Positions 3,702 through 57,500 of a stretch of 64,000 nucleotides of DNA are shown piece after piece. The notes under the pieces were generated by a model that was given only the letters and a program-made list of their open reading frames with translations, did not search any database and was not told the origin of the DNA. This DNA comes from Bilabrum cf. latius (Eukaryota), in assembly GCA_965178125.1 (NCBI GenBank), contig OZ237765.1, forward strand, positions 372,001 through 436,000. Direction: 5' to 3'. Positions within the stretch are counted from its first letter, which is position 1. Each line of letters starts with the position of its first letter. The position numbers were made by a program, and so were the translations under genes.

Positions 3702-6700
3702 TCAAAATAATCTCAGCCTCCTGGTATTTGTACACAAGTTTTTCTCACACCCGCAACTCCGGAAGCCTTTTGTCGATGTGCCCAGGTCAACTGCGAACTC
3801 AGGCTCCGATTCAGATTCTTCTAAATCGTCTGGTATTCTCTAGTACTGTTCCGCTGCATCTGTTGTAAAGCAGCTCGATCCACAAGCTGAAGTGCGACTG
3901 ATTGCACGATAAGTATACAATAGAAGGGAGGACAACACCACGCAAACAGAAGACATTGCCATAGCAAGTCCGGCAAGCTCTGGTGGAAGTATTAACCTTG
4001 TTGCTGGGTAAAGTGCTCCTGCTGCGACTGGGATCCCAAGAGCATTGTAGATGAATGACAAGATCAAGTTCAGTTTAATCCTGCCGAAAACTGTTGACGC
4101 CAAATCGATTGCAACCACTACATCGTCGAGCTTTGACTTAACGAGGACAACTCCAGCTGCTTCCTTTGCTACATTCGTTCCAGTCCCAACTGCTATTCCA
4201 ACATCGGCAGCCGCTAAAGCTGGGGCGTCATTGATGCCATCTCCTACCATTGCGACAGTCTTGTTCTACTACAACCGCAAGACAACTGCCTACTTATCCT
4301 CAGGCAGTACCTCTGCGATGACATTCGATTCGGGTATCCCAAGCTGTCTCCCAACTGCCAAAGCTGTCAATTTGTTATCACCAGTAAGCATCGTGACAGA
4401 TACGCCAAGGTCAGCTAGGTTGCGAACAGTTGCTTTCGATTCTAACCTTAGCGAATCCATCATACCAATCAAACCTACAACTTGACTGTCCTTGCCAACC
4501 ACCACAACAGTTCGACCACTTCTTTCAAGCAAATTCAAGTCATGCTTCATTTCAAGAGAAACCTACAATCCGCATTTTCGCATCCATCGAACCGTTCCAA
4601 CACACACAGTGCCTCCGTTATAGTTGCATTTGACTCCAAACCCTGGCTAACTTTCATACTCTTCTGCTTGCAAAGAAGCTAGATCGACGAAGCTTGAAGC
4701 GCACTTTAGTATTGCCTACGCAAGCGGATGAGTTGATCCCAATTCTGCCAGTGCGGCTGTTCGAACCACTTCCTAGAACCTCTTGATCGTATCATCACCT
4801 CGGAACTTTACAGATGCCGTTGATTCCGCTTCTATGCCATCCAATGGCGTAGATCCAGTTCCCGATCCCGTGCTCTTCCGAGCGGCGCACAGGCATTCCT
4901 CGGGATTGCATGTGCATGGATCGCCAGATGCCGAGCTGCTCGCACAGCATCCGCTACCAGTACCGCCGCTGCCAGGAGACTGCAGCGAATCGCCAGTTGC
5001 CGCCACATCTGCTTCAAGTGGGCACTGAGATGGTTCCGCGGTAATAGAAAGTATCGATGAACCGGTCATCTGCATGCTCGTGCCACTCGCAGCGCGGCTT
5101 GATGGCTTCCTGCACGAATTAGCTGGTACACTAGGGGCAAGTATGATGTCAGTCACCACCGGCTTGCCTTGCGTGAGCGTGCCCGTCTTGTCAAATATCA
5201 CTGTGTCAACGCCAGAGAGGGTTTGGATCTCTGCGGCTCCTTTGAACAGGATTCCCATGCGCGCACCCACCCCGGTGCCAACCATGACTGCGGTAGGGGT
5301 GGCCAGCCCCAGGGCACAAGGGCACGAAATGACCACCACGGCAAGCGAAAACCTCAGCGCCAGGAGCCACGGACTCTGGCCTTTGGGCACGTATCCGGCA
5401 GGGGCCCAGCCCTGCGACAGACACAGGCCCCACGCCAGGAAGACCACGGCAGCTGCGATCAGCACCCCCGGCACGAACATTGCACTGACACGGTCCGTGA
5501 AGTCGTGGATGGGAGCCCGCTGCTCCTGGGCCTCCTCCACCATCGTCACGATGCGAGACAGCTGCGAGTCAGCCCCCAGTCGCTCCGCCCGCACCACCAC
5601 GCAGCCAGACACGAGGGTCGTCCCGCCCGTCACCTCGCCGCCCGGGCGCTTCACCAGCGGTGCGCTCTCCCCAGTCAGCATGCTTTCGTCGGCCTCGGCT
5701 GCCCCAGCCAGCACAGTCCCGTCGGCCGGCACCCTGTCCCCCTCCCTGAGCTTGAGAAGATCGCCGGCCCCCAGCAGCTCTGCACGCACGGTGACCTCTC
5801 TGTGCCCCGCGTGGGAGGTCGCGTCCAGAATGCCCAGCGCGATTGCCTCGGGGAGTGCCTTGATTTCCGAATCCGAATCGCTTGCAGTGTCTGCACTGGC
5901 CTGCTTGCCGAATTCAGCCGCGTTCAAGCCCCCGACAAGTGCACTTGCCCCAGCACCACCGGCACCACTGGCCCATTTCGCGCTCCTGCTCATCTCGATC
6001 TAGTGCCCGCCATTGCTACCAGGCAAGGCCGCAGAAGCTGCCGCGCCACCAATTGGCGATGGTGATGTAGACCTGGATTGCGCGCCTTCATTCCCCGCAC
6101 CAATAGGCTCCAGCACAGTGGCCTGGTCCGGCCGCAGCCGCAGCAGCTCAGTCACAGCAGAGGAGGTTCTGCTCTTGGCCAGCACCTCGAGCAGCTTACC
6201 CAGGCTCACGAATGTAAGCAGCAGAGCGGGAGTGTCGAAGAAAGTCGCCGGTTTCTTGCCGTCACCAACCCCAGCCGCGAAGAGCCCCAGCTCCAGCACG
6301 CTCGCGAGATACGCCACTGAAGTCCCCAGGGCAACAAGAGTGTCCATGCCCATGCGACAGCCGCCACGGAGACCCCGCCAGGTGCCCTCGTAGAAGGTCC
6401 ACCCCACAGTGCACTGCACCACGAGCGACAGCGCCGCCTGCGCCACGTGTCCGCGGGGCAGCCTCTCCACCCCGAACGTGCCCTTGTACAGCTCTCTACC
6501 ACCAGCCGAGTCGCGGGGCACCATCGACAGAGCAAAGACCGGAACTGCTAGCATAGCCGCGACAATCAGCCTCCACACCCACGCCCACAGCGCGGCCCGT
6601 TGTTCCCTGGCGGCTGCCTCGAGACGCTCCTCGCTCGATCCCCCCGCCGGACCAGCTTCGAACCCCGCCGCCTCCACCACAGAAACGAGCTGCCGCAGCG

Positions 6701-7562
6701 AGATGGCAGCTGGTGCGGCGGTATTCCCCGCGCCCGATGCCGCCCCGGCAGGGCTGAGCTTCACGATGGCAGAGTTGGTAGCAAGGCTGACTGCAGCAGA
6801 CTGCACGCCGTCCACGGCCTCGAGCGCCCGCCGCACGGCCCCCGAACAGGAGGCGCAAGTCATCCCGTCGACACGTAGCCGAATTTCACCCTGGTTACCG
6901 CCTGCAGTGCCCCCCTGTGACTCGCCACCAAACGCCTCCCCGGCGGCGAGCCGGGCATCGAACCCTGCCGCTTCGACCGCCGGGATGAAGCCGGCCTCGT
7001 CTGCATCGGATGGAGCATACCGCACGACCGCAACGTTCGTCGCGAGAGAAACACTCGCATCATGCACGCCATGTAGTGCGGTAAGGGCATTTCGAACCGC
7101 AGTGGAGCAAGACGAGCACACCATCCCGTCTACCTTGATGCGCACCACGGATTCCTCCTGAGCGCTTTCCACCAGCGACGGCGATTTTGCTGGTGTGCTG
7201 TTGTTAGAGCCTAGCATACTTCCTCGACCCCCAGAGGCTTCACTGGCCTAACTTCCAAGCAGGCTGCTCTGTTCAGAGTTCAGCTGATTCATAGCAGAGT
7301 GCGTCGGCACGTGATACTCACGGTCGTGCCCGTCGCTGCCCTCACTCCCTACACCAGGGACAATTTTGGCATCAAACCCGGCAGATTCAACTGCATCAAT
7401 CATCGCCTGTTGGCTGGAAGCGCTGGAAGCACCCACAGTTGCGCTGTTCGGCAACGAAACCGATGCAAACTCTACCCCGTCAACTCGAAGCAAAGCGCTT
7501 TTAACTGTCTTAACGCAATGCTTGCAAGTCATACCATCAATCTAAAGATTAAATTCAGGCAT
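3702..7562 (-). CDS. Copper-transporting P1B-type ATPase (ATP7/CopA/RAN1 type), about 1286 aa
   Basis: One frame from ATG 7562 to TGA 3702 through 11 TAGs. Three HMA domains (GMTCKHC, GMVCSSC, GMTCASC), [39 protein letters not shown], and the YN and MAMSS Cu(I)-site motifs. Confidence 0.95.
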
Positions 7563-7741
7563 GGCTTGGTTGATAGACGACTGAATATCGCTCTAAATTC
7601 TGGCTAGAGAGCGTCGACGTCCCTTCACCCCGATCCGCGAAAGGAATGACGAGTGGCACGCACCAGGAGTGGGTTTGCCGATTCGACGCAGTTTATAGCC
7701 GAGCAAGGGAGATGATGAAGACGTGCCGTTAACCTTTCGCA

Positions 7742-10700
7742 ATGGAAACAGTATCTGCTGTTGCTCGCTTGGTTGCCCCCCTCTTGTCGTGGGCTTCCAC
7801 GCAGGACGAACGCACGGAGCAATCGCAGAGCGTTGCCGTGCCCAGTGGTCGACCTCTCCGCGAGTCACAAGGAGGATTTGCCGGCCAGACGGTAGAAGTC
7901 GGAGCGGAAGCGAAAGATAGTTCAGCTGTACATGCATTGGCTGTTGGTAAGTAGGCTCGTACCCGCAACTGCAAGCCTGGAACAGCCGGTGTATTCCTCA
8001 GCCAACGGCAACCTAGTCGACTGCGAAAAGCGGATCTACTCAGGGAATTCCCCGCCCCGATTACGCCTAGTTTATGCCCTGCTCCATCGAGACTGGTGAG
8101 GGATTTCTTGGGCCCTAAGGATCTTGCCTCGCTCGCCTCGGTGAGCACGGCTTGGGCGGCGGGAAACTATTTGAGCCGCTTGGACAAGACATTTGGCGAT
8201 CAGACCCTGGACGAGACATAGAGAGGTGTGCACAGCGTCATGCATGTCGATGCAGCGCTTGCTGCGACTGCCCTCGGTGTACTCCCAGCGGCTGATCCTT
8301 CCCCCGGACATTCGGAGCGAGCTGCAAGCGGAGCGTCCGAGAGCAAAATCGAGCACCCTCCGCTCGATAGCGAGGACAAAGCATGCGCTTCACCTGGAGC
8401 AACCAAAGAACACGACCGTGCAGCCCCAGGCCCAACAGCAGGTGCAGGCCTGGTGTCTCCGGAAGAAGCCAGGCGTCATGCCGTGGCAGTCTGCCTCGCA
8501 AGGGGCCAGCTCAGGCTCGCCCTCACTGCCCTGCACCTGCGTTCCGACGCACCCATGGGCATGGCACCGGGCAGGGAGCCTGATCCCAGGTGCCACTACC
8601 CCCGCCTGCTGCAGGCCGCCCGATTTGACAAGGAGGGCCCGCAGGCGGCGCTGGAGGTACTCGGAGCCGTAAAGGCAACTGGGGCACTGGCGACTCCGGA
8701 ATTGTTCCTTGGAGTCATAGAGGCACTCATCACGGCCCCTCGATTCGCGGTGAAACACGTGCCCAGCGTGCTGGCGGACATGGCGGCTCTCGGCCTGGGC
8801 GCCCCGCGAGCGCTGGCCCTGGCACTGCTTCAGTTCGAGATGGCGGCAAGGCTCGTGTCGGCGTCGGCCCGGTCAAAGCGAGGGCGCACCAGGGCGCAGA
8901 TGAGGCGCAAGCGGAAACAGGCGCACGTAGGGGCGGGTGCGGGGAGCAGCATCGTGTCAGATGGGACGTCGGCATGCCAGGGGCGGGAGCTGCTGGGCGC
9001 CGATGGCATGAGTCAGAGTCAGAGCCACGGCTAGAGCAGGGGCGGGAGAGACAGACCAACGGGTGCCAGAGGGCGAGCGGGCACCGTGTCGACTCAGGGA
9101 GACACGGTGAGGAGCGCGCTGGAATTTCCAAATGGGAATGCAGGGCATGTGGCTGGCGGTCAAGGCTCGTCCAACGGTACCCAGGATCCGTATGACGGCA
9201 TCGATGAGGCAGCAATGGCGTGGCTTGTGCCCACCTCAGCCGGTGCCGCTGCTGCTTCATCGGTGGGGCGGTCAAAGGCTAGGGGCACCAGCAGGGGGGC
9301 CGTGGGCGCGAAACATGGCGGGACCCGAGATGCACCTGAGTTTGAGGCCTAGACGATTGCAGGTATGAAGCAAGCAGCAGGGCAAGCAGCAGGCAGCGGA
9401 GAATTGCATGGATGTGGTGCGTAGCCGTCCTCTGGCACTATACCGCCGATTCCTGCCCCGAGCCTGCCTGGCTTCACGGCAGCTGCTGTGGACCTAGACG
9501 CAGGCACCCCCGCTTCCGCGATGCACCCAGCCTTGCCCGGCTTCACGGCATCCAAGCTGCCCGCTGCCCCCGAGCACAAGCAAGGGGAATAGGGCGACAG
9601 CAGCTCCCCACGGATAGAGAAAGGGGCGCCAAGGGCAGCCACGGATGCCGCACAGTCCGAAGCTGGTTAGACACGGACCAGCAAGGGCTCCGGTCGGCGG
9701 TCGAGGCGACTCAGGAGCAAGGCGGTGTCAGCTAGGCGGGCTGCGTTGGAGTGGTACGGCAGCAGGGGGCGGGGCCTTCCAGGAGTCGTCCTGCCAGCGG
9801 TGCCCTGTGCCAGGGGTGAGGAGGACCAGGGCGGGTCCAGGTCAAAGTCGGCGTCTGCATCCAGCAAGCCTGTCGCGTGGGTGCAGGCTGCGCCAGGCCC
9901 CCAGCCGGCCGCGCCTAGCGGGGAGGGCAGTGCAGGAACTGGCACCCGCGTGCAGCCTGGCGGCGCATCTATGCCTGTGATCGGGCTGGATGCAGGCGGA
10001 GAGGATCCAGAGGGGAGCGCGCGCGCACTGGTGCCAGGACACGATGCGCACGAGGATAGATCGGCCGGGTGTCCCTCTGTTGCGAGGTCGGTCGTGACCA
10101 CCCAGTCCGCTACTGCCGCCACCGGGCCGCCCCTGCTGCCATTCCCCCGTCGAGCGATCGATTTTGTGACGTGGGCGAGGGCACTGACCGGGTGCCCGCT
10201 GCGCCGAGTCGGGTCGTTGGTGGCGAACATGCAGCAGCAGATGGACTCTGCCGGCAAGTCTACCGGCAAGTCTGGCGGGAAGAAGGAGCGACGGTCCAGC
10301 GAACGAGCGCACGGTAGTGCTTCTGTATCTGCGGGAAAGCGAGAGCCACGATGCCCCTAGCAATGTGCTGCTGGGAATGCCGGATTGCAAGCGCTGCCAG
10401 CGCAAGCGCCCGAGCCACCCGACACCAAAGGCCTGGGGTCCCACTCTAGGCAACCAGTACGTGCTATGCAGGTGCCAGGCTTCAACGCCGAGCCGGCTGC
10501 TCCCATGGAGGGCTAGCCTGGCGGCGGCGTGCCATTGTTTGGGACGGGAGGGCAGGGGAGGCGGCCAGCCAGTGGCTTGTCATCTATGCATGCTTCCCCT
10601 GCGCGGCGGTCGCGGGCTGGTACGGGCGATTCGAACGTATCTGCCAGCACAGATGCGGCCGGGTCAGGGCGTTCGAGGAAGAGGAAGCGTCGCAGGAGGA

Positions 10701-27666: not shown

Positions 27667-30600
27667 TTACAGTCCTGCGGGACCATCTCCGCCACCAGCA
27701 GGCGGCTGTACCACAGTTTCGGTCGGAGCTTCCTTCTTCGGGGGACCACTACCACCCGACTGCGGCGCAGGCTGGGGGAACTCGGACTCGGGGATCTCGG
27801 CGACGGGGCTAGGCATGCCCTCCTTAATGTAGAAAGTCTTGCCAAAAGCCGGCGGCATGGCGACGTATCCCGGAGGAAGATCACGGCCGTCCTTGTATTT
27901 CTTAGCGCCGCTGTTGAGAGGACCGGCCCCACCAGTTGCAGGCCCTGCCTCCGAGCTGCCAGCGTCGTCCTGGCCGCCAGGTATCCACCTCATGCTGCGT
28001 GTGCCCGTCCACCCCGCTGTTTCCTCCTCTCTGTTCGTTCCGTAGCACTCAAACGCCAGAATAAGGGACCTAAAGCAATCCCTGAAGTACTCCTCCGCAC
28101 CGTTTAAGCTGAAGTAGAACCGCCGGTGTTGGTGGCCCCACAGACTAGTCGTGCCCACTGGTAGTGGGATGACATCGAATTTCTCCAGACCAGTGCAGCA
28201 CCCGTACATGGACCGGATCGACATACCAGGTGAAGCCACCACGGACTGCACCTTGGACCGAATCTGGGCGCGATTCCACTCGAGTCTGCCCTCGGCGATA
28301 CCAGCTCCCACATCATGAGCCGCGAACGGTTGCCGAATGTGCCTGCCGACGATTCCGTGAGCCATGCCGTCGATCGAGGGAATAGTCTGGGGAGTGCCGT
28401 CGCGACTTCTATCGAGGATGGGCTAAATCCCGCTGCTCCTCCCCAGCACTGCTTCGAGCATGCTGTCCGCGTCCTTCTTCGGCGATGCTCGAACTCTCGC
28501 TGCACTGCTCTCACCGTGTACGTGCGGGCACCTAGCCTCGGCACCATCGCCGCTGCCTGGCGCCTGAGCCGCGTCGCTGCCCTTGCCCATGTCAGCACCA
28601 GGTCCTGCTGCTCCGTTTGAGCCGTCTTCTTCAGGCCTTGGAGTGGATCGACTGAACAGTGGGTCGCAGCCGGCGTACTTGTCTCTCCTCTTCTGGGCGA
28701 GGAACGGGCCAACGATAGCCTCTATTGGAATAGGAGGCAGTGCCAGCTCTGCCTTGGCCAGCAGGATGCGCTGGTTCCTCACCCATGCTTGCATGCGATT
28801 GCGGCCCTCCTTGGTGTCAGCCGAGGTCTTGGCGACATCATCCATGTCCTCGCACCCATACAGCAGGGCCACCATTGCCTGGATGGCGTGCTCCAGGGGC
28901 AATCGGTGCGCAGGGTTCGGCTGCATGCATCCTCGCAGGATCGCCTCAAATTCTACAGGCCGCCTCTGCTCGGCCCATGCGTCGTCTGGAACGTCCGGAA
29001 TGGTTCCCTTCCCGTCAAAAAGGGCTCCTTCGTGGGTGCTCTAGCGCAGAATTGTGTTGTAAAACACCACAGCTGCCTGGTACATGTCAGTGGGGCCAGC
29101 CGCCTGGGCTGCCTATTTGATAGGCCGACTAGCAGCATCGTTGACGCCGAAACCGCCTGAATCCCGCAGTCGTGCCACTTCAGGCAGCCACGGTGCCCAT
29201 GGTGTATCATCTCTCCTCTCGAATAGATCGGGACTATATGCAACAGGCCTGGCCTCGCGGCCCCTGCAGCCCTCATAGAGGGGCTCTTCGTCAGCGTGTT
29301 CCGGCTGCATCTCGCTGGGATGCATGGCCCGCAAGCCAAATCCAATGTCGTTCGCCCTGTCGAGTTGGGCATCAGCTTCTGAACCAACGCTGCCATCGGC
29401 ATCCCCGACACTGCCCTCAGAGGACAGTGGGCTCGATGAGTCGCGAATGGAGCTGCTCGCGGAAGTGGGAGCACTGTCAACACAGATCTTCAGACGGGAA
29501 ACCAACTCGTCGGTGGCCTTGTCCACATCAGCCCGCAATCCGCCCTGGTACAGGAACATGGCGTGCTCGAAGTTGAAGAGCAGCGCCCTCCCGTCCGGAG
29601 TCAGGCCTATGTTCTCAGGCCGAATGTCGCTGTGGACGACACCACGCTGGAGCATGTGCTTGCATGCCATGAGCATCTGCAGGAACCAGACACCCAGTTG
29701 GCGTGCCGACAGCTTGCTATTCTCCTTGCGACACTCCTCTACCACCTGATCCAGTGTAGCCGGGAAGCGCTCCTCGATGCAATAGATTGCCTTGCACTAA
29801 GTCGCGCACTCGCGCTCGTTCCTTTTCCGCAAGTATGGCAGCATGATCTGCGCTGGCGCCATCCAGCTCGAGATGACCCTTTGGATGAAATGGCACCCGC
29901 GGCAGACGACGCTCTCGGATCGATCTGTGTCGGACCGGTGCATGCGCTCGCCAAGAGCCACCCGGATCAGCTTGTCCCGGATATATCGCCTAGCAAGGTC
30001 CTCGTTCACCACGAAATCCGCTCCCCCCACGGGCAGCTGCACGGACATGATGCCCTGGAACCCCGTGTACCACCGGCCATCTTCGTTCGCGTCGTTGTAT
30101 GTCTCCGACTCGTCCACGCCCGGCTGGGGCCCGGCCTCCACTGCGAACCTGAGCTCGGTAACGGATAGGCCCTGTCTATGCCGTGCCTCGTGCTCCGTTC
30201 CGATGGGCCTGGCCTAGGCAGACCTTTCTTCCCTGATGCTTTGTGAATCAGCCGCAGGGATGCCGGCATCCTCTTCGTCAGCCTCTTTGCTCTCGCTCGC
30301 TCCGCAGGTCGCGGCACTGCCGCCAGATTCTGAAGTCCCCTCTGCAGAATGGCCTTCAAGGCTTGCTCCTCTGGCGCCCCTTCGCGTCCCACCTTCTCGC
30401 GGGTATTCGGACTCCTGCGAGACCTAGTGGTACGAGGGGCATTCGGGCTCCGGGTCGACGACGCGTAGCTTACCACCGTCAATGAGCGACAGTGCCTCGC
30501 TAGACAAGTCGCACTTGCTGATGCGATCGACGGATTCAGTGCTCTGCTCATCTTCATCGCCCTCTGCACCGAGCGCGGACACCGCCGGGTAGTGCTGTGT

Positions 30601-32407
30601 CAAGTTGGCCCCAACACGGGCCAGCCTCCTGCCCCACCTGGCCATTCCCCGATCCTGGACCACCTGCGCGCACTCCTCATACCGCTTCCTGGACAGTAGC
30701 GCGCACAGCTCTGCATTGCTTGCGTCGTTACCGCCTGTTATTTTGAGCGTGGTATGGCCGTTTTCGCCCACGAGCCAGGCGGACTGCGGGACACCAGCCG
30801 GTAGTCCGGGATATTTAGTGGTGTCCGGCACGGCACCATCTGCATCTGCGATACTACCCACCGCCGGAACCTGGCTACCCGCCGCCGTGGCACTTATGGG
30901 GTCTTGTTGCTGTACATGGGTGCCAGTGCCACCACCCTGAGGGGGCATCTTGTCACGAGCCGTTGGGGAAGACATCGACGTGCCCGGGGTGCCCCGTGTG
31001 AGCTCGCGGGTCTTTTCCAGCGCAGCCTTCCTGGCTTGTTCACATTGCGCCTTACGAGCCAGCTCGACAATAGTGCTGAGCATGTGTAGCTGCATGTCGC
31101 CCTTGTCCTTACTAGTCTGTAACAGCTCCTGCTGGACCTTGTGAAGAGCCTCGGATGCTTCAGCTTTGTGCTACTTCTCTCTTCTTAACAAGTCGCGTCG
31201 CTCTTGCTGCGCCTTTAGCTGAGCACTGGCTGCCTTTTCATTGAGGCTTTGGTTGCTATCGGTGAGCGACGCTACCCTGGCGCCAGGGGCTGCGATGTAC
31301 TTGAGCTGGCTCAAGAGAAAATCAAACTTCACGTCGGCATGCTGCACTTGAGCCGGTGTCTTGCCATCCTGCGATGTGTATACATGATTGTAAGCCAATC
31401 GCCTCATCAATATCAATGCGTTCGGCGCGGGTGCTTCATCATGATAGCTCAAATCATCGCCTAACCTTGTTAGTGGCCGTCACGTCGATATTCGGCACCC
31501 CCAGAAGAAGAATAACGCATTTTGCGCACCGAGCCGATGCTTCATGCAGCGGAGAGTTGGTGTTATTTTCGGTGTTGCGTTGTTTGTTCACGTCGGCACC
31601 CTTCTCAAGCATGGAGGCTAGTGGCTCCGGACGTGCGAAGTGAGCCGCCCAGAACACAGCCGTACCCCCGTCCTGAAACGAATATTTACATAAAAAGACG
31701 AACGAAAAGATGTTACGGCTTACCGCTAGCATGTTGCGGGGCAGTTCTAGCTGGGAGAACTATGGCTGCTCACATGTTGGTCTTGATTTAGTTGCTCCTT
31801 CGTTTGTGCATCAACAAGAAGTTTGGCAATGTCGCAACTCTATTGTCGCAGTGCCTAGTAAAGCGGGGTGAAGGTTTTGCCGCTGCCGCCCGCCCCAGTC
31901 TGCAATATGACTCTAGAAAAGAAGACTGGTCAAATCCGCTCTGACGTCACGCTCTGGAAGAAAAGACTGTCCTGACGGCTGGATTCCAAGCGATCCGGCT
32001 AAGTCTTACGGTAGATTCTTCAGACAACCCGATAGGGTTCGCTCCTTGGCACAGAAGCTCCTTGACAGCGTCTGGTTTCTTGTGTATGACCGCAAAGGCC
32101 AGAGGCGTCAGCCCTTTCTGCTTAGATTGCAACAAATTGAACCCGCACCAAGAAATGTCGAATAGTTTGCAAAGGGGGATATTGAATTTGAAGCACTCCT
32201 CTTTCATACATCGTTTCTTGAATTCAGAAGGGATGCCTTTGCCTCGGCTCCATCAGCTGCCTCAAGGATCTGCTGGATAGCACTCTTTGGATTCTCATCT
32301 CGGATCGCCTTCCAGATTCCGGAGTCCCTGAGGGTAGGAGCAACGCAGCAAAACAACAAAGCGATGTACTAGGGGTATAGTTACCGCGCTCGTGCGTGAA
32401 TACGCAT
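27667..32407 (-). CDS. Ankyrin-repeat + coiled-coil + protein (pseudo)kinase
   Basis: Ankyrin exons 32210-32327, 32010-32117, 31774-31899, 31466-31672 (KGLTPLAFAV, TPLY*AL, GGTAVFWAA, SPLHEAS, NK|DGKTP), each bounded by GT..CAG, then a long exon 27667-31368 with kinase C-lobe GVVHSDIRPENI...LLFNFEHA...TDMYQAAVVF...MQPNPAHRL. About 9 TAGs; ends TAA. The first exon and start are uncertain. Confidence 0.8.
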
Positions 32408-42734: not shown

Positions 42735-43199
42735 TCACTCACTCCTTCGGTGGATGGGAGCCAGCTTCCCAGCGGCTAGCCTTTCAATGCTTTCTTCCAG
42801 TCGCCCGAGAGTGCGGGAGAGTTCGAGGGCTTGCCGCTAGGTTGCTGCCGCCGACTATCTTACAAGTGACTCTGACGCTGCTGCTACGCTTTCGTGCGCT
42901 CGCGAGTTTAGGCGGCGCCGATGCAATGCAGCGTCTTGCGCAAGAGCCACCATGAACTGCGTTACATCGTCTGCAGCTTCCATAGCAAGGACGAGTTTCG
43001 TTGCGTGTTCTTTAAATTCTGCGTTTGAATCACTTACGGCTGCATCACAACATTTAATTTGCTCCATCGGCAACAATTTGCACTTTTTTGCTCACTCTAG
43101 GGCCTTGCGGAACGTTCGGCATGGTTCGCATTCTGTATTTCTGGCCAAGTTTCGCAAGATCTGCGCCAGATCTCGCGACAAAGTACTTTCAGTATCCAT
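42735..43199 (-). CDS. Possible small helical/coiled-coil protein
   Basis: Frame of ORF 42855..43076 extends through two TAGs to TGA 42735 (...LELSRTLGRLEESIERL...). A GTGAGC donor near 43095 could join MDTESTLSRDLAQILRNL..., but the splice phase is not cleanly resolved. Confidence 0.3.
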
Positions 43200-44318
43200 G
43201 TGCAGTCCAAGCCGTATTGCTGCCGCCGCATGCGCGATTGCCCTCCCCATGGCGTCATTCGGTGAGACAGGGTGCCCCAATGGACGAGGCTGCCTTGCTG
43301 AAGGAGAGAGCATGCCCCCACTTGCAGAATACGACCTGACAATAATGAATTACTAATACTTAAACTTTGTTTGTATGCATCTTGGCAGTATACTCGCCTG
43401 ATAACCCTTTTTTTAGTGCTTGACCCAACCGTCGCAGCTGCGGGATACAATGAAACTGAGGCGCTCTCATTCGTGTACATGGCAGCAGCGGCCTACTGCG
43501 ACAACTCAAGTTTGCAATCCTGGACTTGCGTAGCCTGTGGCAAGGTTCCGATCGTGCCTGGCTCGCAAACTATTCGTTACGACGACGAGACGGATGTGCG
43601 AGGATACACTGCCAAATTGCAAGACGGAAGTGAGATGAGGTTATTACCACTTGAACCTATACCTGTTTAATGTTACTTGTATTTCGTATGGCTTGCTTGA
43701 TCCTTCCCTGCCGCACCCGCAGCTGGTCTCGTGTCCTTCCGCGGGACCGTCCCATCCGACCTTCTGAACTGGGTCGAGGACCTGAAGAGCGCCTTCCAGC
43801 AGGACTACCCTTTCAACGGGTGCCAGGGCTGCAAGGTGGCGGATGGGTTCGACCAGGCCTACGACCTTCTGCGGTCGGGCGTCCTGGACGACCTCAAGGC
43901 AATGGGCCTGGGCCCAGGCTCCACCGTGTACGTCACGGGGCATTCCCTCGGTGCCGCCATGGCAGGCCTGTGCGCCTTCGATCTAAAGACCATGGGCTAC
44001 AACGTGAAGGGCTACACCTTCGGGCAGCCCCGGGATGGTGACCCGACTTACTCGAGCACGTTCGCGCGTCTCTTCCCGGTGTCGGCCGGGAACTGGTTCC
44101 GCGTGACGCACAACGCAGACATCGTGGTTCACTTGCCCCCTGAGTTCCTGGGCTTCCACCACACATCTCAGGAGGTCTGGTACAACGAGGCATCCACCTC
44201 GTACAAGGTCTGCGACGGGTCGGGGGAGGACGCGTCGTGCAGCGATTCGGTGGACTTGCCGATCAGCATCGACGATCACCTGCACTACCTGAATGTGCCC
44301 ATCAGCAGGTCGTGCTAA
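43198..44318 (+). CDS. Class 3 lipase, secreted, about 283 aa
   Basis: Exons 43198-43261, 43438-43629, 43723-44318. Signal peptide, AAYC, VSFRGT, VTGHSLGAAMA, YTFGQPRDG, RVTHNADIVVHLPP, DHLHY. No internal TAG; ends TAA followed two codons later by a second in-frame TAA. Confidence 0.93.
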
Positions 44319-44516
44319 TGGTAACCCTAGCGGGGCCGACCGAAAATCTCAATGGAGAAGCCGGCCTACATTGAGGCCACCGTGGAGGTACACGGTTGCC
44401 GCTGCGTCGGCTCGGATTGAGTTGTGCTACCCAGTCCTGCGGTTGCGCAAGTGCATTTACACGTGTTAAGAGTAACTTAATGCGGGTGTACAATATCAAG
44501 TAGCAGGAAACACATA

Positions 44517-47600: not shown

Positions 47601-49018
47601 GCAGCGGCCATGGTAGGGTACAGCCCCAGTGACACGTGCAGGTCTTCCGTGCCGTGCGCAGACTCGGCTCCGATCGATTGCACCCCAAGCGAGGCATGAA
47701 ACCGACTGGGGCCGTCGTCGCCCGAGTTGCTGCCGCTCGCCCCGCCTCTGCTGCTGCTGCTGCTGCCAACCTGCCGGGTGCCTCCAGCTCGCCCCGCGAC
47801 ATCCATCGCCTCTTCCTGGCTGAGATGCTTCACGCTTGTGGTGCCCGCTGGTATGGAGGGCTCGGGGTGCTCCCTGGTCGCATTCGTCACATCAACCACC
47901 AGGGGCAGCAGCACCAGCTTCGTGCCCGGGGCGCGGGTTGTGCTCTTCACGGCCTTATTGAATTCGTCTTGGCTCTTGATGATGGCCCAGTGAGGAGATC
48001 CATGTAACGCGGGCGACGCGTATGACTAGGGCTGTGACGAGGATCCAGCTGAGGTCTGGACGGTGTCTGGGTCTCGATCTTTGCCGGGTGGCGGGGGTCC
48101 CTTCGTACTCTTGATATCGTTGACAAGAGCATTCAATCCACTGGCCCCGGCAGTCCTCCAAGCCCGTGTATCCACTGGCCTGTCCTTCTCATCCTCTGCT
48201 GCATCTTCCATGGGGGAGGAAGAGGTTCCGGAAGAGGAGGGCTTCGGCTGGCAAGGCCCGGCGCGTGACACTGCTGCCCCAGGTAGTGTGGGGGGTCGCA
48301 GAACCGCAATGCCAGCGCCATTTCCCAGCAGTTTCTTGGCTTGCTTTGAGAGAATCGCATGCTCGCTCGTTCCCATGGGGGTGTTGCTCGCACCGAGCTC
48401 AACGCTTGTCAGGTACGCCGGACGAGTTGAACCCAGGAATACCGTGTAGAACTTAGACGGGTCAATGGAGTGGTCCAAGCTGGCTGCAAGCTCGCTGACT
48501 CTGTCGAGTAGCCGGCCTGCAAGCACCCGAAGAGACGGTACGTCAAGCGAACCGACCAGCGGCTGCACTCCACCGGACTTGCCAGCAGCAGCCACGTCCT
48601 CGATCCATCGCACATCTACAGGCATGCTACTTGCTTCGGACGGAGATAGAAGCTTGCTCCGCTCGAAACTTGTCAAGCGACGATATTTTCGTGGGGTCGG
48701 TCCCTATTGCTACGCACCCGTTGCAAGTGCTTCACGGCTTCGTAAACTTCCATGCAATCGGGAGTCAGGCAACTACGGGGGCACTAACTTTGAATCCTGA
48801 TGTTTTATTCCTCCCTTGTTGACTATGCTGTCTATTTCAGCGGATGGTACCCGTGGTCTCCGCTTTGGTTCAGCCGACGCTGGTGTCCCCGTCTTGGAGG
48901 CAATCTCTCTAAATGCAGCCATGGCAGATGCGGCTTCCATGCTTGTGGGGGACCACATTGAGTCCACTTTCTTCTTCTTTGGGCGCACTGGTGATTTCAT
49001 CTCATGCTGGGCCTACAT
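44540..49018 (-). CDS. AP2/ERF-domain transcription factor, about 1490 aa
   Basis: Seven track ORFs share one frame, joined by about 13 TAGs, ending TGA 44540. Clear AP2 domain TSQFRGVRYCKRSHKWIATICFRGKTSRLGVFVREEDAAHAYDRMA...NF at about 45190-45390; second degenerate AP2 (SLGLYPTMAAAAAAHDRAA) at about 47560-47710; NLS-like RPKKKK. Confidence 0.85.
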
Positions 49019-49157
49019 CCCTTGGGTTTACGTGCCAACGGGCTCGCTCGACGATTTCTGGTTAAGCAAGCACCACACAGAACTGCACCTTTCAAAACAT
49101 CTGGTTCGGAATTGCAGCTTCATTTTGCTCATGCAGCGGCGCTAGCTTGACCGGACA

Positions 49158-52100
49158 ATGCTGCACTAGTGGCGAAGGGGGTTTCAACAACTGCTTCGTA
49201 GGCACCTAGGAGTTGGAAGCCCTGTCCCTGCCAAACCATTCGGTGCCTCCAGAAGTACGCAATCTAGTCTGCATCAGCGCGGATTCTCCTCCATTCGACC
49301 GTGTAACGGACGTTTTTCATAGCATATATTGTCTCGTGTATACATGCTTAGCGACTACCGGAGGTGCATTGGAAGCAGCTTGTCAAGATGCTGCAAGCGG
49401 CATACCACAGTGCCCTCACACGATAGCTAGCCGCATGGTGCAATTGGAGAGGATGAAGCCGAAAGATTACGAGCTATGCGATCATCAGCTGAAATATTTT
49501 AGCTTGTCATGCAATCTGATGCGGCGGGCAGTTCGCAAACCATCGCTGCAGCGCTGCTTCGCTTGACGGAGGTGTCCCATCAACCACACAAACTCTTCGA
49601 TCACGCTACGCTGAGACGAATTCTTGATCAGGCATCCTTACTATATCGGAAGCATCGCGTTGCTTGGTCGCATGAATCGCGCATCAGCGCGATGATCGCG
49701 CTCGGGCGACTGCTGGAATCTGCGAGAGGCGCAATCGGTTCTGGCAACCCAAGCGCAAGGAAAGCTGCCGCCCTCCATGCAGCCATCGCAACGGACTGGA
49801 TGGCGTCAGATGGACCTCACGTGCGCTGGGAGGTGCTGCACCAGGCTGCGATTGGTCTCAAGAGCAGGGCAGAGGGTGCCATGCTTCCATCCCTCAAATT
49901 GCTCGGGTAGGCAACTGCCGCGAGGCTTGCTCGCCTAGCCTCGGTGGGCGCCGAGGCAAGAGCGAATCCTGGCGGTACTACCATTTCAACCAACATAAGC
50001 GTTCAGGAGACAGCGAGTGTGCCCAGGGAAGCAGAGTGGGAAGCGGATGAGCAGCTGGCTGGCAGCCACAGCAACCCATTGGTCGATCCAGCCACAGGTC
50101 GGGAGGACCCTTGGTCTTCCACGAAGAACCGACTCGCGCCCAGACACCTGCCCCGTACTGGCAGACAGGTAGCTCAGGTGGTGGAAGGAATTGCGTCTGG
50201 GCTAGAGCGGGTGCTGCTTGGGAGGCGGCGGCTGCCCGCCGTACTGGCATCTGGAAGGTACCCCGGTGCATTGCGAGTTCCTCCAATTGGAATAGATGGC
50301 CGATCGGAGGGTGATGCTGACCACGGGATACCTGAATCGGAGATGCGCCTAGGCAGTGGCGGTAGCGTTGCCAGTGCCGGGTAGTCTTCAGGCCACGCAG
50401 ACCGCAGTGCACTGGTGATTCAGGAGAGCGCGGATGCTGTGCGTGCGCTTGGGGTGGCGATCGAGAACGCAGCTGACCTTCTGCTGCCCCAGCTGCACGA
50501 GCAAAGCGATGGGCATGGGCTAGGGGCATTAATGGACCTACGTGCTGGTGAAGTTGGTGCAAATGGCGAGGCTGGGGCGGCCCGCACAGCAGCACTACTG
50601 TGCAGGGCCGCTTGTTTGCACCGAGAACTGGTGCTTGCCTTGCAAGGTGCGGGTGCCGACGTTCTTGGTATGGACGTGCCCCCCTTGGGACAGGAATGGC
50701 AGGATGTGCTAGCGGGGCAGGGGGCGGGCGCTGCCCAGCGAGGGATGGGGCGGCTGGGAGCTGGGGACTCTCTGCACCTTGACCTGGTAGCGCGGTGCTT
50801 GCGGGTGGGCTGGCACGATATCACTGCTGGAAGAAGTGATGCAGAGGAGGGGTCTTTGCCTGGGGCTTCTGGTATCCGCGGCTCGATCGCAGCCGGTGGG
50901 GAACAGATAGTGGATCCTGTGGATGACGCGAATGCGAGGCGACCTGTCTATGATATGCTGGTTGATAGCAGCGTGATGATTCGATCCATTGCATCTGGAG
51001 AAACATCGCTGCCGAGCGAGACTCGCGGGCTGGGCGAAGCTGCCCTTCGCAGCGTGCTGCTGACGACACATCAGCTCCATCCCGGGCTTGCAGATCACGC
51101 ATTCGACATGCTGGGGCCAGGCCGGAAAGCACTCTCGGGACAACCAAGTGGCATGGCAAGCCATCGTACAGCTGCCTTTCAGCGCGGAGACAGGCGGCGA
51201 GGAGTCATTGATGGTATCCACCAAGACGCAAGCGGGATGGAAGGTGATGTCGTAGGATTGAAACCACAAGGACGGGGCAGCGGCAACCGAGCCGGACCAG
51301 GCAAGGGCAGGAGTGGTGGCAGTGGATCCGTAGACAGGAACTACGGCTATAGAGTGCCTCCTCTGCTCTCAGAAGCGATTGAATCCACGCTCATCGGCGT
51401 GCTAGGGACCAGCACGCTGGCGGATGCGTGCGGCAGGATGGGTAACCAGCACTGGCTGCTGGTGGCGCGCGATGACAGCGATGAGCCGCATACCAAGGAA
51501 GACGTACCGTTTGGGAATCGCTCTGCTACTGGGCGGGCTGCAAAGCCAGAGGAGTCATTTGCGCTGCTTCCCGCGCTGCTTCCAGACAAGGACGGGGGCA
51601 TGGTGGCGGAGGGCGTGCCTCGCGTGTCAACCGCGTCGCTGCGACAGGTGTCGGTCGAGTCGTGGCGGAATCTGCAGGACGACATTACAGCGCTGCTCAA
51701 CGGATCGATGGGGCCGTTCTACTGGGTTGGCGTGGCTCCATCTGCCAGAATAGCACTGGCAACCGCGCTTCACTCGTCACTTTGTCGCCAGTTGGAGTCG
51801 GAGCCAATTCACAGCCAGGGTAGGAGGTCCGTGGCCCTACGAGCCGCACTGCACGCAGTCGTGGAAGCAGCCGCCAAGACTGCGAAGCAACGCACCGCAG
51901 ACGAGGCGATAGCTCTGGCTGGAAGTGCCGCAGGTCTGCAGGACCCGCCGACTCAGATGTTGCCAGGCTATGCTCGGCCGTAGCCTAAGCTAGACGCGAG
52001 GCAGCAGAAGACCATCCTGCGAGTTAGGGATTTGCTTGTAGCAAAGGCACAGCAGGCGCGGGCTGTGCTTAGGGAGGTCGCGGAGGATGAGCCATAGCCC

Positions 52101-54104
52101 CCAGCTGCACTACCCCTGCCCGCAATGGATCACATGGCTGTCCTGACGCACTCGTCACGCGCATGCGCCGAGGTGCTGCCCTTGGAGATTGCGGGTACCT
52201 CGACTGCCGATCGCATTGCAATCGCCCTCGCTGCGTCGCGCCTGTGGCCGGACGGCGCGAGCGCTGTGGCGGCCAGGTGCCTCGAAGGGCTGGACCTGCC
52301 TCTGCAAGCGAGCTACATCGCAGGCGCTCCCATGGCTGCAACGGGTGCTGCCGTTGAAGTAGAGGCCGATGCACGGTGCCGTGCTATCGACTTCAGACAG
52401 CATCGATTGCTTGAAGCCGTGGATCGGGCTGTGGCGGGGGCAGCGTCTGGTGCTCAACTGCGAGACATTGCCGGGTTGTCAGTTGCACTTGCTACCGCAG
52501 TCCCACATCTGACTCGCCCTAACTTGTCCGGCGAGATGACGGTTTCAACTGTTGAACGGAATCTCGGGCGACTTGCTTCGCGGCTGGCCCGGCAAGCGCT
52601 GGCCTGTGCCAGGCGCCAGTTGCAGGCAGGACTGTCGGCAAATGAGCAGCAGCGCTTGCTGCTTGCATTGGTTGACGTGCTGTGGTCCACAGCCTGCATG
52701 GGCGCGCTTGATGATGATCTGGCCGCAGGCGTGTGCGCTTGGCTCGAGCATATGGCACAGTCCAGCGATGTTGCTGTTATGTCGGATAGCTTCGGCCATG
52801 TCAGCAAAGCATTGGCCGAGCTGTCAAAGTTCCACCCGCTACTCAGCGCTGCTGAATTCGCGGCAAAGAAATCGGGATCCAGTGCCACCAGCGACCTGGT
52901 GCAGATGCATTCGGCTGAACGGGGCAGGGACGCTGGCGATAAAGGCGACACAGCCGAGGACCAGGCGGCAGGTGCTGGTGTGTACAGCAAGCGGCGGTCG
53001 CAATGGGTTGGCACATCGCGGAGCCAGCAGTATCCGAATGATGACATGCTGGAGGCAGGGATGCAGGAGCTAGAGCTCATGGGGTGCGATGACGGTGACT
53101 CGTTGACCACGGATGAAGCCATTCGCCAGACTTGCGAGGAGCGGCCCAGCGGTGCATCTAGCCTGCTGCAGCAACATGGGGTGCATGGAGATTTCGAGGA
53201 CCTCTTGGACGAAGACAGTCATGCCAACGGTGACGAGAATGTAGATGGAACCGTGCCAGACGAGTCGCAGGGACTGCCTGACCTAGCCACTGGTGGTGCT
53301 GTTTAGGGCTCAGCGGCGGATAGTCCGGCAGCACCGACGTGGCTGCAACGGATGCTTCCTGCGATGGCGAAGCATCCGTTGCAGCCTCACCAATGGTCCG
53401 CAGCACAGGCATCGCGATTACTACAGCTGCTAGTATGGTCTCACGCCCTTGCGTCGAGCGAACATGCTAGCCTGTCGGGCACGCAAGAGGAGGCCGCAGA
53501 TGTGAGCATGGCCAGCCACGAAGGCCTTCCTTCCGGCCTTCAGGCCATAGCCAGGTGCTTTGAATCACCTTGGGCGGTACAGCTGCGCGCCCGCAGTGTG
53601 ACGAGTGATTCGAAGGCCTCAGCCGGTACCAAGGAACTGTTGCGCAGACTGCGGAGCTCGATCCAATATACTTCGGGAGCTCGGGCTCCTTCGCAGGCTG
53701 TGTCGGATGGGAATCAGACCGAGGGAGCACAGGTCAGGGAGCAGCGGGTGGATGCCCGTGTGACGATTGGTATCCGGTCGAGCGAAGGGGTGGTTCTGCC
53801 TGCTCTCGTTCGGCACACCGGGACCGTTGTAGTGGCAGCTGACGAATTGGAGCTAGCCCCCGTGGAGGGGCTCGGTGCGGGGTTCGATCCCGGGTGCCTT
53901 GTGGCCGGCGCTCGCCTTCAGCTAGAGGCTTGGCGGGCGCATGGACTTGAAGTGGTGGTGCTACCGAGGCATCGCCTGCGCAGAATGAAGAACAAGGATC
54001 TGTTCCGGAAGGAGGTGGCTCGGCTGGCAGAGTTGCATGGGGCTGCTCGTTTAGCTGCATTGCTGAGTCTGGAAAGGGGGGCAGGTCCTAATCCGTAGGA
54101 TTGA
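49158..54104 (+). CDS. Probable mitochondrion-targeted helical-repeat protein with C-terminal RAP domain (FASTK-like), about 1648 aa
   Basis: One frame through about 10 TAGs, ending TAG-GAT-TGA. Arg/Ser/Leu-rich, acid-free N-terminus (MLH*WRRGFQQLLRRHLG...). The C-terminus GCLVAGARLQLEAWRAHGLEVVVLPRH resembles a RAP domain. Confidence 0.65.
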
Positions 54105-54250
54105 ACCAGTACGGCGGCTTGCCGCGCTTTTTGTGGCCTATGCAGCACTGCGTTCGGTGCGGCTACGATCGGATTATTTCGTCGTCACATTCGTTAGTTT
54201 CTCTTTCGTGGCTCATCAGTTGTATATCTATAGGGCATGCTTCAACTCAG

Positions 54251-57200
54251 ATGAATTCGAGCAAGCGTATTGACCGTGTGGTGAGCTATGTACGCGCACA
54301 AGCATCCTACCTACTCTCACAGAGGCACAATAAACTAGAACGTATTGCTGCCAGTCTTGTTGCACCTGTCGCAGGCAACCTAGCTCAGGTTCTACTTCTC
54401 GGATGCAAATATGCGTCGAGATAAGTATTTGAAGTCAAACTTGAGCTGCGGTGCGGCACCAGTATCCCTTTTGCTCTCGTTTCGACGAATAGAGCAATTA
54501 CTGTCAGGCCGAACTCTTCCTGAGGCGCTCAAGGATATCTTGCTGGCTGCTCGGTAGACCCCTAATTTGACTGTTGTAGCTTTGTCACCATATTCACGGG
54601 ACTATCTTTCGTCTTCGCGTCAATGGCCACCAAAGAGGGGTGTTCGGTTGACGAGGCGAGGCAATACAATCATTCCGCCCGTCGATGCTCCTAGCAAAGA
54701 AAGTATCGGGTCAATGGAGTGGATTCAATCATAGATGCAGTCTATACAATCATAGGCTGTGCGCTCTCGCCGTGGGCGTGCCGGGGAATCTCAGAGATTC
54801 GACAAAACTGAATCTGCAAGGCAGCTGGCACGAAGTGTCGGCATCCGACGCGTGCTCGCTGACCGTGTGGAAGAGCGACCGGATGCAGTCGTCTACATTG
54901 AAAGCATTGATCCTGGCTTCTGGGACAGAGTCGACTAGCAACAGCTGCGGTCTTTTTTAGAAGGCAGGTTTGGTCCCACGCATTACGTAACGGTGCCCAG
55001 GGACAGAGGCACTGGAGTCCCCTTCGGTTACGCATGGGCAGAATTCAAGCTGATCAAAGATGCGACCCGGGCTGCTGCAGACCACGCGTGGAGTGCGGGC
55101 GGCACCGAGGCAAGGCCAGCCACGGGCGGTGCATCGACAGCAGGTGCTGGCACCAAGCAAGGCCACGATACCAATATCCCACCGCAGCAGGTTCAGGAGA
55201 AAGCCTCGAGCGAGCATGGCCATGCCCCGACTGTTGCTGGCATCAAGCGTCCCCGAGTAGCCGCCCTGAACCCATCGCTAGACGAGGACGAGAGCGAGAA
55301 CGACACGCAGAGCACAGCTCGCGAATAGCCTGACCACAGTGCTGGCGGTGCTTCATCCGCCGCATCCGCTACAACGAAATCAGCAGCGCAGGTCGAATAG
55401 CTGCAAAAGGTCGAGGGGCAGCGCCCGGCCAAGCGAGCTAGAACTGAAGCTGAGGCAGCGGATCGGCCCGTGGTAGATCCAAGCAAGGGCAGCGATGGCG
55501 CTTCGACCGACGGACTGGACGACCAGAAGGGCAATTCTCGAGACTCTGGGCAAGACAAAGAGAGCACTGGTAGATCCAAGGTGCAAGCTTATGCGGTTAG
55601 TGGTGCAGATGGGGATCGCTGGAGCCGAACGCACAGCAACGAGCAACCAGTACTGACCGCCCCTTCGGATGACGGTCCCGAAGAGCCCGCACAGCCAGCA
55701 AAGACCGCCACTAAGCGCCACAGCGCGCTTGCTTAGAGCGTCCGCGACCGCATGGCTCGCATCCAGAGATAGTCTGCCCCGCGGCACGCGTCGCAACCAC
55801 CGGAAGAAGATGGATACTTTCCCGGCACCTAGGCTACTACAGGAGTTGGCGGTGCAGGGGTTGGCGGTGCAGGCGCACCACAGGCCCTACCGCCCGCCCC
55901 TCTTTCTGGGTAGCAAGCGGAAGATGGCCATCACAACACCGACCCCTTCTTGAGTGCCTACCCAAAGCTGCGTTTGCTGCAGAAAACAGGCGTGCTGGAC
56001 GAGAGGGGTGCCTCGATCGGCGCAGTCGAGACCTCCCCTGCTTCGCTCATGCAGGTCCCTCCGGTGGAGATCGTACCCCCGGATCACCCCACGCTCACCA
56101 CTGCGCCCACAAGCTCGGCAGCACCGGCAGCGGAGGGCCTTAAGAGGATGAAGATCAAATCGGGGGCGTCAGACTCTTCCTCTTCCTCCTCCTCCTCCTC
56201 CTCCTCCTCCTCCGCGTCCTTCCGATCGGGTCAACCCGCCACCGGTCTGGCTGCGCCTGCCCGTTGCCTCGCAGACCTAGAGGAAGGCTGGGGCGGGGTC
56301 GGTCTGCGGTCATACAGCGTGCTTGGTACGAAGCAGTATGGGTTGGCATCGGGTAGCCAGCTGGTGGCTGCAGGGGCAGGCCGCGTGGTAGTGCAGGGCT
56401 CAGGTCCGACATCGAACCAAGGCACACGTGACGGTGCCACATACGGCAGTGGTGAAGCGTCGTCGCGGGACGTTTCAGGCGCATCGAACGGTTCCAACGC
56501 GGTCAGATCTCCTCAGTTGTCCTTTGACCCCTCCAGTCTCCGTATCATGACCAAAGCGCAGTACAATGAAATGCAGCAGGCACTCGGGATTGGAGGACCG
56601 GCAGATGAGCCTAAGCTACAGCAGACCTCTCGATCGGCTACTGCTGACCCTGCGTGCATCGTTGTGGTGCAGGGCATTCCCGCGGGCTGCTCGTTCCGTG
56701 ACCTTCGCATCGTGCTGTCAGAAGGGGGCCCAGTCGCCTTCCTGGATTTCACTGAGGCAAAGCGAGTCCAATTGCAGACACATGGACAAGGCCCGCTTCT
56801 AGTGCAGTCACCCTAGGCAACTTTGGGCCAGAATGGGGCGGGCCCTGGACTACTGCCCCTCCCAAAGGATGGTGGGGGTGGTGATGGTAATGGTGCTGGG
56901 AAGAGCGGCGAAAATCAAGAAGCAGGGGAGGTTGCATCAGCATCGGCTGCTACGGCTGGTGAAGCAGATGGCAACCTTGCAGGCGAGCAGTCGCATACTG
57001 CGCTCACTTTGGTCTCCTCCTCGGGTGCTGCTGCGTACGAAAATGTCCAGTCGTCGGTGTTTGGCGAGATGGATGTATCCCCTTTCATGGCCGGGCCTGT
57101 GGTCCATGGCATGAGCGACGGGGACAGCGAAGGCGCCGCTTGGTAGCACTATCGGGGCAGCGGTTTCGCGGGTGGGTCTGTTCCATTCACTGGCAAAGAC

Positions 57201-57500
57201 GGAGCGGGCGAGCCAGGATCCTTAGACCCTGGAGGCACAGGCGTTCTTGGGCTGCTGGAGAGTGGCCGTGGTGCGACTGTTCGATTCAGCACGGCGGCAG
57301 CGGCAGCGAATGCAGTGGCTATGTGGCGGAGGCGGGCTCCGGTCGTAGATGCAGCGGGCCTGCAGGTGACCTCGCTACTCTCCTGGGGCCAGACGGAGGT
57401 AGAGGCAGTGCTAGCACGGATTGGCAACTCTAGGCGTGGATACAAGAAGCGCGGCAAAAAGAGGCGCGGCGCTCGCGGGGCTCCGAAAGCGCGATTTTAA
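54251..57500 (+). CDS. LARP7: La-related protein 7-like (La motif + RRM1 + C-terminal xRRM), about 1051 aa
   Basis: Exons 54251-54280 and 54375-57500. La motif AT*LRFYFSDANMRRDKYL...LLSFRRI; RRM1 VVYIE...FGPTHYVTVPRDRGTGVPFGYAWAEF; xRRM CIVVVQGI...LRIVLSEGGPVAFLDF...ATVRFSTAAAA...EVEAVLARI. About 13 TAGs; ends TAA. Confidence 0.82.
56175..56213. repeat. (TCC/TCT)n tract encoding poly-Ser in LARP7
   Basis: Read directly. Confidence 0.9.

Follow-up and report, generated by a model that had tools for sequence, protein, structure and literature searches.

UAG appears to be the only stop codon reassigned, to glutamine, in the nuclear code of Bilabrum cf. latius

The stretch of DNA analyzed here (the window) comprises 64,000 nucleotides of contig OZ237765.1 from Bilabrum cf. 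latius and carries, among other genes, a class 3 lipase gene that terminates on TAA; once TAG is taken as sense, the window is tiled by long reading frames. From sequence comparisons across the source genome (48.6 Mb in 111 contigs; G000 below), we conclude with little room for doubt that UAG encodes glutamine in the nuclear code, while UAA and UGA serve as ordinary stops. The wider explanation, in which this code goes together with a transfer RNA (tRNA) bearing a CUA anticodon, tRNA(CUA), and an altered release factor eRF1, is very likely correct as a whole. UAA and UAG almost always have the same meaning, and what exceptions there are have been drawn from transcriptomes or incomplete assemblies. 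In the present case the code, the tRNA and the sole eRF1 all come from one contiguous genome, so that the dropping of UAG by eRF1 and the origin of stop-decoding tRNAs become testable.

As judged from a single gene, the organism is probably a bicosoecid-like stramenopile. Cafeteria roenbergensis is the best named match both of its eRF1 (69%) and of an OFCC1-like protein encoded in the window (51%), and an eRF1 tree of 38 rows out of 86, taken for the named and nearest matches, groups the Bilabrum protein with Cafeteria and a further protein, P0007 (support 98/83), with a long branch leading to the query (0.69). An eRF1 fragment labelled Symbiodinium sp. KB8 (P0008) agrees, as far as shown, with P0007, which belongs to the Cafeteria clade; this suggests a bicosoecid contaminant in the Symbiodinium sp. 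KB8 assembly.

UAG in conserved genes

The meaning of UAG was read mainly from dyneins, where every stop within 28 AAA_6 domain matches is TAG. Nineteen dynein regions were fetched, of which 15 gave single frames of 3,700-6,200 codons; the intron-rich regions 186, 190, 196 and 198 were excluded from every codon-alignment count. Together the 15 frames comprise 70,356 codons with 236 TAG and not one TAA or TGA, one of them (L184-L185, G000:C10:11500-30500) holding 60 TAG as against 4-26 in the other 14. In the comparison with 150 dyneins from outside this genome, aligned rows sufficed for 161 of the 236 TAG; at conservation of at least 90% the TAG column is Gln in 7 of 8 cases, and at 70% or more in 14 of 21. 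Among the organism's own paralogues, again at 70% or more, TAG columns are Gln in 16/24 and CAA columns in 21/31. The residue profile at TAG correlates at 0.96 with that of CAG, 0.95 with CAA and 0.77 with GAA, and the mean Tyr fraction at TAG columns is at background (0.015, versus 0.45 at TAC). TAG accounts for about 11% of Gln codons, including one in the eRF1 gene at Q44, a position that is Gln in 82 of 85 eRF1s. What counts against glutamine is that 5 of the 21 columns at the lower threshold are Glu, as against 3 of 27 for CAA; the profile as a whole rules out Glu, as it does Tyr, Leu, Lys, Ser and Trp. The ciliate-type code in which both UAR codons are Gln (table 6) is likewise ruled out, TAA not being sense.

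Termination codons

The initial annotation held that TAA is a true stop and TAG a sense codon, and this view stands: homologous C-termini that coincide with TAG were looked for, and among 43 gene ends fixed by homology there are 31 TGA, 12 TAA and no TAG. The dyneins contribute 11 TGA and 3 TAA (n=14; region 188, whose frame ends before the conserved C-terminus, was excluded), and Ras-family tails a further 20 TGA and 6 TAA, 26 of the 34 tails being anchored by what we take to be a prenylation motif or Ran tail. The remaining ends, one each for eRF1, the lipase and the OFCC1-like gene, are all TAA; the latter two genes were chosen for their TAA ends, and excluding both, TAA makes up 10 of 41. 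TGA is thus the commonest stop (31/43) in this GC-rich genome. Ends of open reading frames (ORFs) predicted ab initio (89 TGA and 20 TAA, n=109) were discarded as a measure of stop preference, as their ratio is near background and some of them are intronic.

The lipase gene and the codons at its end are as follows.

43198..44318, forward strand: class 3 lipase gene (Pfam PF01764, PDB alignment, GT..AG joints and a spliced frame; start ATG inferred from sequence)
44316..44318, forward strand: lipase stop codon TAA, at the family C-terminus by alignment to solved fungal lipases
44322..44324, forward strand: second in-frame TAA, in the lipase 3' untranslated region; no more than chance

The gene has introns at 43261-43436 and 43630-43722, no in-frame TAG, and TAA as its terminal codon; both GT..AG joints are present in contigs from three studies (runs X1, X3 and X5). 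Since the alignment with solved fungal lipases reaches residue 191 of 197, versus 263 of 269 in the latter, the TAA at 44316 corresponds to the family C-terminus, and the earlier description of the end as TAA-TGG-TAA at that point agrees with the triplets at 44316-44324. A lipase-like contig of X5, perhaps from a paralogue given 36 differences in 209 bases, has TGA at the aligned stop position. The second TAA behind the lipase stop is due to chance, there being no enrichment of tandem stops in the three codons past 109 ORF ends (TAA/TGA 4/8 in frame versus 3/9.5 off frame).

A tRNA with anticodon CUA

The initial annotation had also predicted a tRNA-Gln with anticodon CUA and none with UUA. 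A single-copy tRNA(CUA) gene is indeed present (G000:C23:907607-907679, minus strand), scoring 69.8 bits with the Rfam tRNA model and folding into a cloverleaf, alongside genes for one Gln(UUG) and two Gln(CUG) isoacceptors. No tRNA(UUA) was found among 48 Rfam matches (63 of 780 candidates scored) or among the 12 + 4 hits of two UUA-directed patterns, a search blind to edited tRNAs and to genes containing long introns or unusual T-loops; the matching CUA pattern retrieved the known tRNA(CUA) gene as a positive control. Neither the UUA-pattern hits L060, L273 and L274 nor a further six hits of the CUA pattern represent suppressor tRNAs. The tRNA(CUA) would pair with UAG and not with UAA, and its charging with Gln would follow from the meaning of the codon.

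Where the molecule departs from the prediction is in its stems, which are Tyr-like and not those of a simple anticodon mutant of tRNA-Gln. It shares 12 of 14 acceptor-stem and 8 of 10 anticodon-stem bases with the organism's own tRNA-Tyr(GUA), both differences being compensatory changes of whole pairs, and this 20/24 is the top value of 416 cross-amino-acid pairs (mean 8.2, standard deviation 2.9) and within the range of isoacceptors; the next-best tRNA reaches 12/24, with Gln(UUG) at 6/24 and Gln(CUG) at 12/24. Over all stems, 29 of 42 bases are common with Tyr and 23 of 42 with Gln(CUG). Table 1 of PMC9976931 lists A73, C1-G72, G34 and U35 as eukaryotic Tyr determinants, and G73, G2-C71, G10, U35 and A37 among the bacterial Gln determinants, with none given for eukaryotic Gln. 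The tRNA(CUA) retains C1-G72 but neither A73 nor G34, and it carries the Gln features G73, G2-C71, G10, U35 and A37, without U1-A72, G3-C70, G36 and U38.

On these grounds we lean towards a Tyr origin of tRNA(CUA), which would probably have arisen from tRNA-Tyr(GUA) through G34C, with A73 lost and features of the Gln type gained; the pattern suggests a switch of identity from Tyr to Gln. In E. coli, amber derivatives of other tRNAs accept Gln (PMC9976931). The alternative is that tRNA(CUA) descends from tRNA-Gln (or Glu or Trp), its Tyr-like stems being due to chance or to a recombined mosaic, a serious possibility that we consider the less probable of the two. Its D-stem (8/8), T-loop and G73 match Gln(UUG), Glu(CUC) has D-stem (7/8) and loop bases in common with tRNA(CUA), and scoring of the whole molecule hardly separates Tyr (50), Gln (49) and Glu (48), Trp being outside the comparison. 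Descent from tRNA-Gln is, however, hard to reconcile with 6/24 or 12/24 against 20/24 for the stems of acceptor and anticodon, with the compensatory nature of both differences from Tyr, and with C1-G72. A further point tells against our reading: because 63 of 780 candidates were scored, and the nuclear tRNAs for Trp, His, Asp, Leu(CAA) and Ser(CGA) are missing from those retrieved, both the absence of UUA and the closeness to Tyr refer to an incomplete set.

The tRNA search yielded some minor observations. The tRNA-Gln(CUG) genes (L042, L043) have an A4:A69 mismatch and agree with Gln(UUG) at 9 of 24 bases in acceptor plus anticodon stem, from which it appears that the organism's own GlnRS tolerates very different acceptor stems; a search for the GlnRS family gave two loci. 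Eukaryotes usually read the Ile and Val boxes with A34 isoacceptors; nuclear tRNA-Ile(GAU) and Val(GAC) are present here (L011, L045 and one further gene). Fourteen pattern hits (L063-L065, L068, L069, L074-L076, L080, L081 and others; three scanned individually as pattern hits) belong to a near-identical dispersed repeat resembling a short interspersed nuclear element, with a tRNA-like T-arm similar to tRNA-Val(CAC), flanking sequence in common over at least 190 bases, an AT-rich tract upstream and no ARAGORN call. A tRNA with a UCA anticodon lies on the probable mitochondrial contig G000:C111 (L004, L019), which fits organellar UGA = Trp, while UGA is the main stop in the nucleus.

The release factor eRF1

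A single gene encodes eRF1 (G000:C35, about 455550-457423), besides one for Pelota. It has four exons and 438 residues, ends in TAA, and carries TAG at positions 44 and 69 of the human numbering (transferred via a chordate homologue; exon borders were read from the sequence). Autoregulation through these two codons finds no support, 2 of 16 Gln codons matching the 11% average. Public collections hold the organism's eRF1 as fragments only, P0271 starting just past a TAG; P0001 stands at 88%, and none of 79 eRF1 loci from a metagenome scan exceeds 73% identity.

The protein carries the changes G29A, N30D, I35V, S60V, L69Q, N129S and K130H, none of which occurs in Cafeteria. The residues replaced are otherwise conserved at G29 (84/84), I35 (85/85) and S60 (82/85), and G29A, I35V and S60V would be the most specific candidates for an effect on stop recognition. 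The N domain departs from 22 of 93 conserved columns, versus 10 in Cafeteria; for the M and C domains the counts are about equal (7 versus 6 and 9 versus 10). In Iotanema, T32, which bonds a third-position G, is replaced by Gly (PMC5304391), and standard-code relatives retain the GTS motif (PMC9161772). N129 has been proposed as a reader of third-position G (PMC4381064), and a yeast screen for amber read-through enriched N126S (N129S in human numbering) and also yielded I32F (PMC12440015). The rhizarian exLh has L69A (PMC5304391), a change that in yeast raises read-through of UAG slightly more than of other stops (PMC4381064).

It is likely that eRF1 is intrinsically impaired at UAG, so that it would still terminate at UAA and UGA but poorly at UAG, with the pocket of the GTS loop and YxCxxxF reshaped by the seven changes and not by loss of T32; the route through T32G taken in Iotanema is ruled out by the intact GTS. 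The initial annotation had proposed that eRF1 lost recognition of a third-position G and directed attention to the N-domain motifs. Genes with up to 60 TAG do point to loss or strong weakening: if each TAG caused termination 1% of the time, about 55% of the product of the 60-TAG dynein would still be full-length, which would put UAG termination at about 1% or below per codon. The motifs themselves, T32 included, turned out to be intact, with the changes lying beside them.

Several findings weigh against an intrinsic defect. GTS with T32 and S33, E55, NIKS, S70, V71 and YxCxxxF (Y125, C127, F131) are all retained; one of the 85 comparison eRF1s is more divergent in the N domain (24 departures); L69Q and N129S are found in the sister-clade protein P0007 as well, and of 89 other eRF1 fragments 10 have L69Q; N30A is neutral in yeast (PMC4381064); and the authors of the yeast screen warn that enriched mutations may be passengers (PMC12440015). 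The intact catalogued residues, the long branch of eRF1 overall and the changes shared with P0007 could also be accommodated if the code is the same and eRF1 recognises all three stops, being outcompeted by an efficient tRNA(CUA), with its changes reflecting lineage drift. This we regard as unlikely, as the excess of change relative to Cafeteria is limited to the N domain, G29 and I35 are invariant elsewhere, and one tRNA(CUA) gene would have to win at about 11% of Gln codons and at up to 60 TAG per gene.

No sign of context-dependent termination

In a code of the Condylostoma or Blastocrithidia type, UAG would be bifunctional, specifying Gln internally and, in some genes, acting as a stop close to the poly(A) tail. 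Such context-dependent codes are marked by depletion near the gene end (PMC11687900). Among 168 scored ORFs, the coding signal extends to the stop in 109; in these TAG is not depleted, its share of Gln codons being 34 of 222 within the final 50 codons versus 622 of 5,620 beyond 200 (p = 0.06, in the direction opposite to depletion), and we therefore see no sign of context-dependent termination. TAG is read through 11 and 25 codons upstream of CaaX ends and 16 and 20 codons upstream of dynein ends, no TAG follows the Cys motif of the Ras-family tails, and coding-signal change points are as frequent near TAG as near CAA (3 each, n=59), the model having misflagged known ends such as 3642 among these 59 ORFs. 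Together with the lack of TAG among the 43 anchored ends, this makes a bifunctional UAG very improbable. On the other side, the 95% bound on 0/43 still leaves room for TAG at as many as about 7% of ends, 8 of the 34 Ras-family tails are unanchored (six without a motif, two without a stop in the stretch), and so are the ends of the RAP-like and ATPase frames of the window listed below; in-frame TAG is also scarce within three codons past stops (0 versus 5 off frame), an unexplained count that we treat as noise. That the TAG codons are artefacts, whether from pseudogenes or misassembly, from tiny introns or from RNA editing, is highly unlikely, given that TAG alone interrupts frames of 3,700-6,200 codons, aligns to Gln, has a cognate tRNA and occurs twice in the essential single-copy eRF1 gene.

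Relation to known codes

The reassignment of UAG to Gln is itself known already from Iotanema, Protocruzia, Hartmannula and Trochilia, and the logic of a UAA/UAG split, with the prediction drawn from it in the initial annotation, is already found in Panek et al. 2017 (PMC5304391). Iotanema spirale (PMC5304391, PMC9161772) resembles Bilabrum in having UAG = Gln with UAA as a stop, and a tRNA(CUA) and altered eRF1 were predicted there. It is a fornicate and not a stramenopile, its dominant stop is UAA instead of TGA, its eRF1 has T32G where T32 is intact here, and its tRNA, not identified, was predicted to derive from tRNA-Gln(CUG) (PMC5304391), whereas the tRNA(CUA) found here is closer to Tyr. 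The ciliates Hartmannula sinica, Trochilia petrani and Protocruzia tuzeti likewise reassign UAG alone to Gln (PMC11687900). As here, no context dependence was found in phyllopharyngeans according to the same paper, whose main text makes no mention of eRF1; no suppressor tRNA is reported as detected in H. sinica and T. petrani, in contrast to the tRNA(CUA) identified here.

The UAA/UAG split also occurs with other amino acids: UAG = Leu in the rhizarian exLh, where eRF1 is changed at position 69 (L69A) with its motifs intact as here, and in phyllopharyngean metagenome-assembled genomes, and UAG = Ser in Scotinosphaera. The Leu suppressors come from tRNAs for the same amino acid, with no identity switch. 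The same codon table is used by crAss-like phages as 'Genetic code 15' (PMC9523058), which are viral and follow bacterial RF1/RF2 logic, and giant-virus bins are best called with it (PMC13524828). If our reading is correct, Cafeteria-like flagellates are candidate hosts of giant viruses that use this code; a search of the genome for an endogenous-virus ATPase gave zero matches.

Our most far-reaching proposal, which we put forward tentatively, is that a duplicate of tRNA-Tyr turned into an amber suppressor before acquiring Gln identity (A73G, G2-C71, Gln-type D-arm), accompanied by a UAA/UGA-only eRF1 with its motifs intact; this would be an apparently unreported nuclear code change in stramenopiles by a new route. 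No nuclear code change in a stramenopile was found in the open-access full-text literature, with supplements, subscription papers and theses outside the search, nor do the accessible parts of PMC10553269, PMC10120064, PMC11412368, PMC12152300, PMC2965240 and PMC13524828 describe one. Within the literature searched, the lineage is new, as are a GC-rich genome whose commonest stop is TGA, the identification of a tRNA whose stems are Tyr-like, and an eRF1 that retains T32. If correct, the organism has a natural 'amberless' eukaryotic release factor and is a natural example of a eukaryote freeing one stop codon only; a UAG-blind eRF1 is needed for amber-free yeast and for work with non-canonical amino acids (PMC12440015). 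Annotation of this genome and of its relatives must use TAG = Gln.

Other genes of the window

The remaining frames considered are listed here.

454..3642, forward strand: OFCC1-like gene (name from the initial annotation); 7 in-frame TAG; TAA 3640-3642 at the homologous C-terminus
3702..7997, reverse strand: P1B heavy-metal ATPase frame; 12 TAG, several within the Pfam hydrolase match; ends with TGA 3702
27667..31479, reverse strand: kinase-like frame; 7 TAG; ends with TAA; end without homology anchor
48801..54104, forward strand: long frame, RAP-like in the initial annotation; 11 TAG; ends TAG-GAT-TGA (54096-54104)
54285..57500, forward strand: La/RRM (LARP7-like) frame; 14 TAG; TAA 57498-57500; end without homology anchor

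All triplets quoted earlier are where they were said to be (44316-44324, 3640, 27667 on the reverse strand, 57498, 54096-54104, and 3840 and 3702 on the reverse strand). Among the three further genes said to end in TAA, the OFCC1-like end is anchored, its ...ELFRGV-TAA corresponding to ...SFFQGL in the Cafeteria homologue, while the kinase and LARP7-like ends are unanchored and not decisive alone. Three of the seven TAG in the OFCC1-like gene fall at conserved Gln positions (Q in 25/28, 21/28 and 15/28 homologues) and four in variable columns. The same reservation applies to the two frames adduced for TAG read as sense: the RAP-like frame does run TAG-GAT-TGA and the ATPase continues from TAG 3840 to TGA 3702, with both ends unanchored and not decisive alone, and TAG 3840 lying in a tail beyond the Pfam matches. 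The 48801..54104 frame has no Pfam match, a RAP domain included (E<=0.001), and an X1 contig, which may be DNA, spans 49151-54185 without joint or difference. As for the statement that the other genes end in TGA, it applies to the RAP-like and ATPase frames, whereas the TGA at 38778 and 42215 lie inside GT..AG joints and are not gene ends.

Elsewhere in the genome, a single open frame of 34,978 codons (G000:C1, about 1,036,100-1,141,035, minus strand; L203-L214) contains 36 TAG and no N and ends in TAA. It is rich in Ser, Gly, Val, Ala and Thr, with a Cys-rich start and about 357 copies of a repeat unit, the number of which may reflect assembly, and may encode a titin-sized surface protein. 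Within the window, GT..AG joints lie at 38773-38979, 40267-40713, 41630-41817 and 42210-42488; by these joints the GH2 and GH20 glycosidase genes are multi-exon, in contrast to the long single frames around them.
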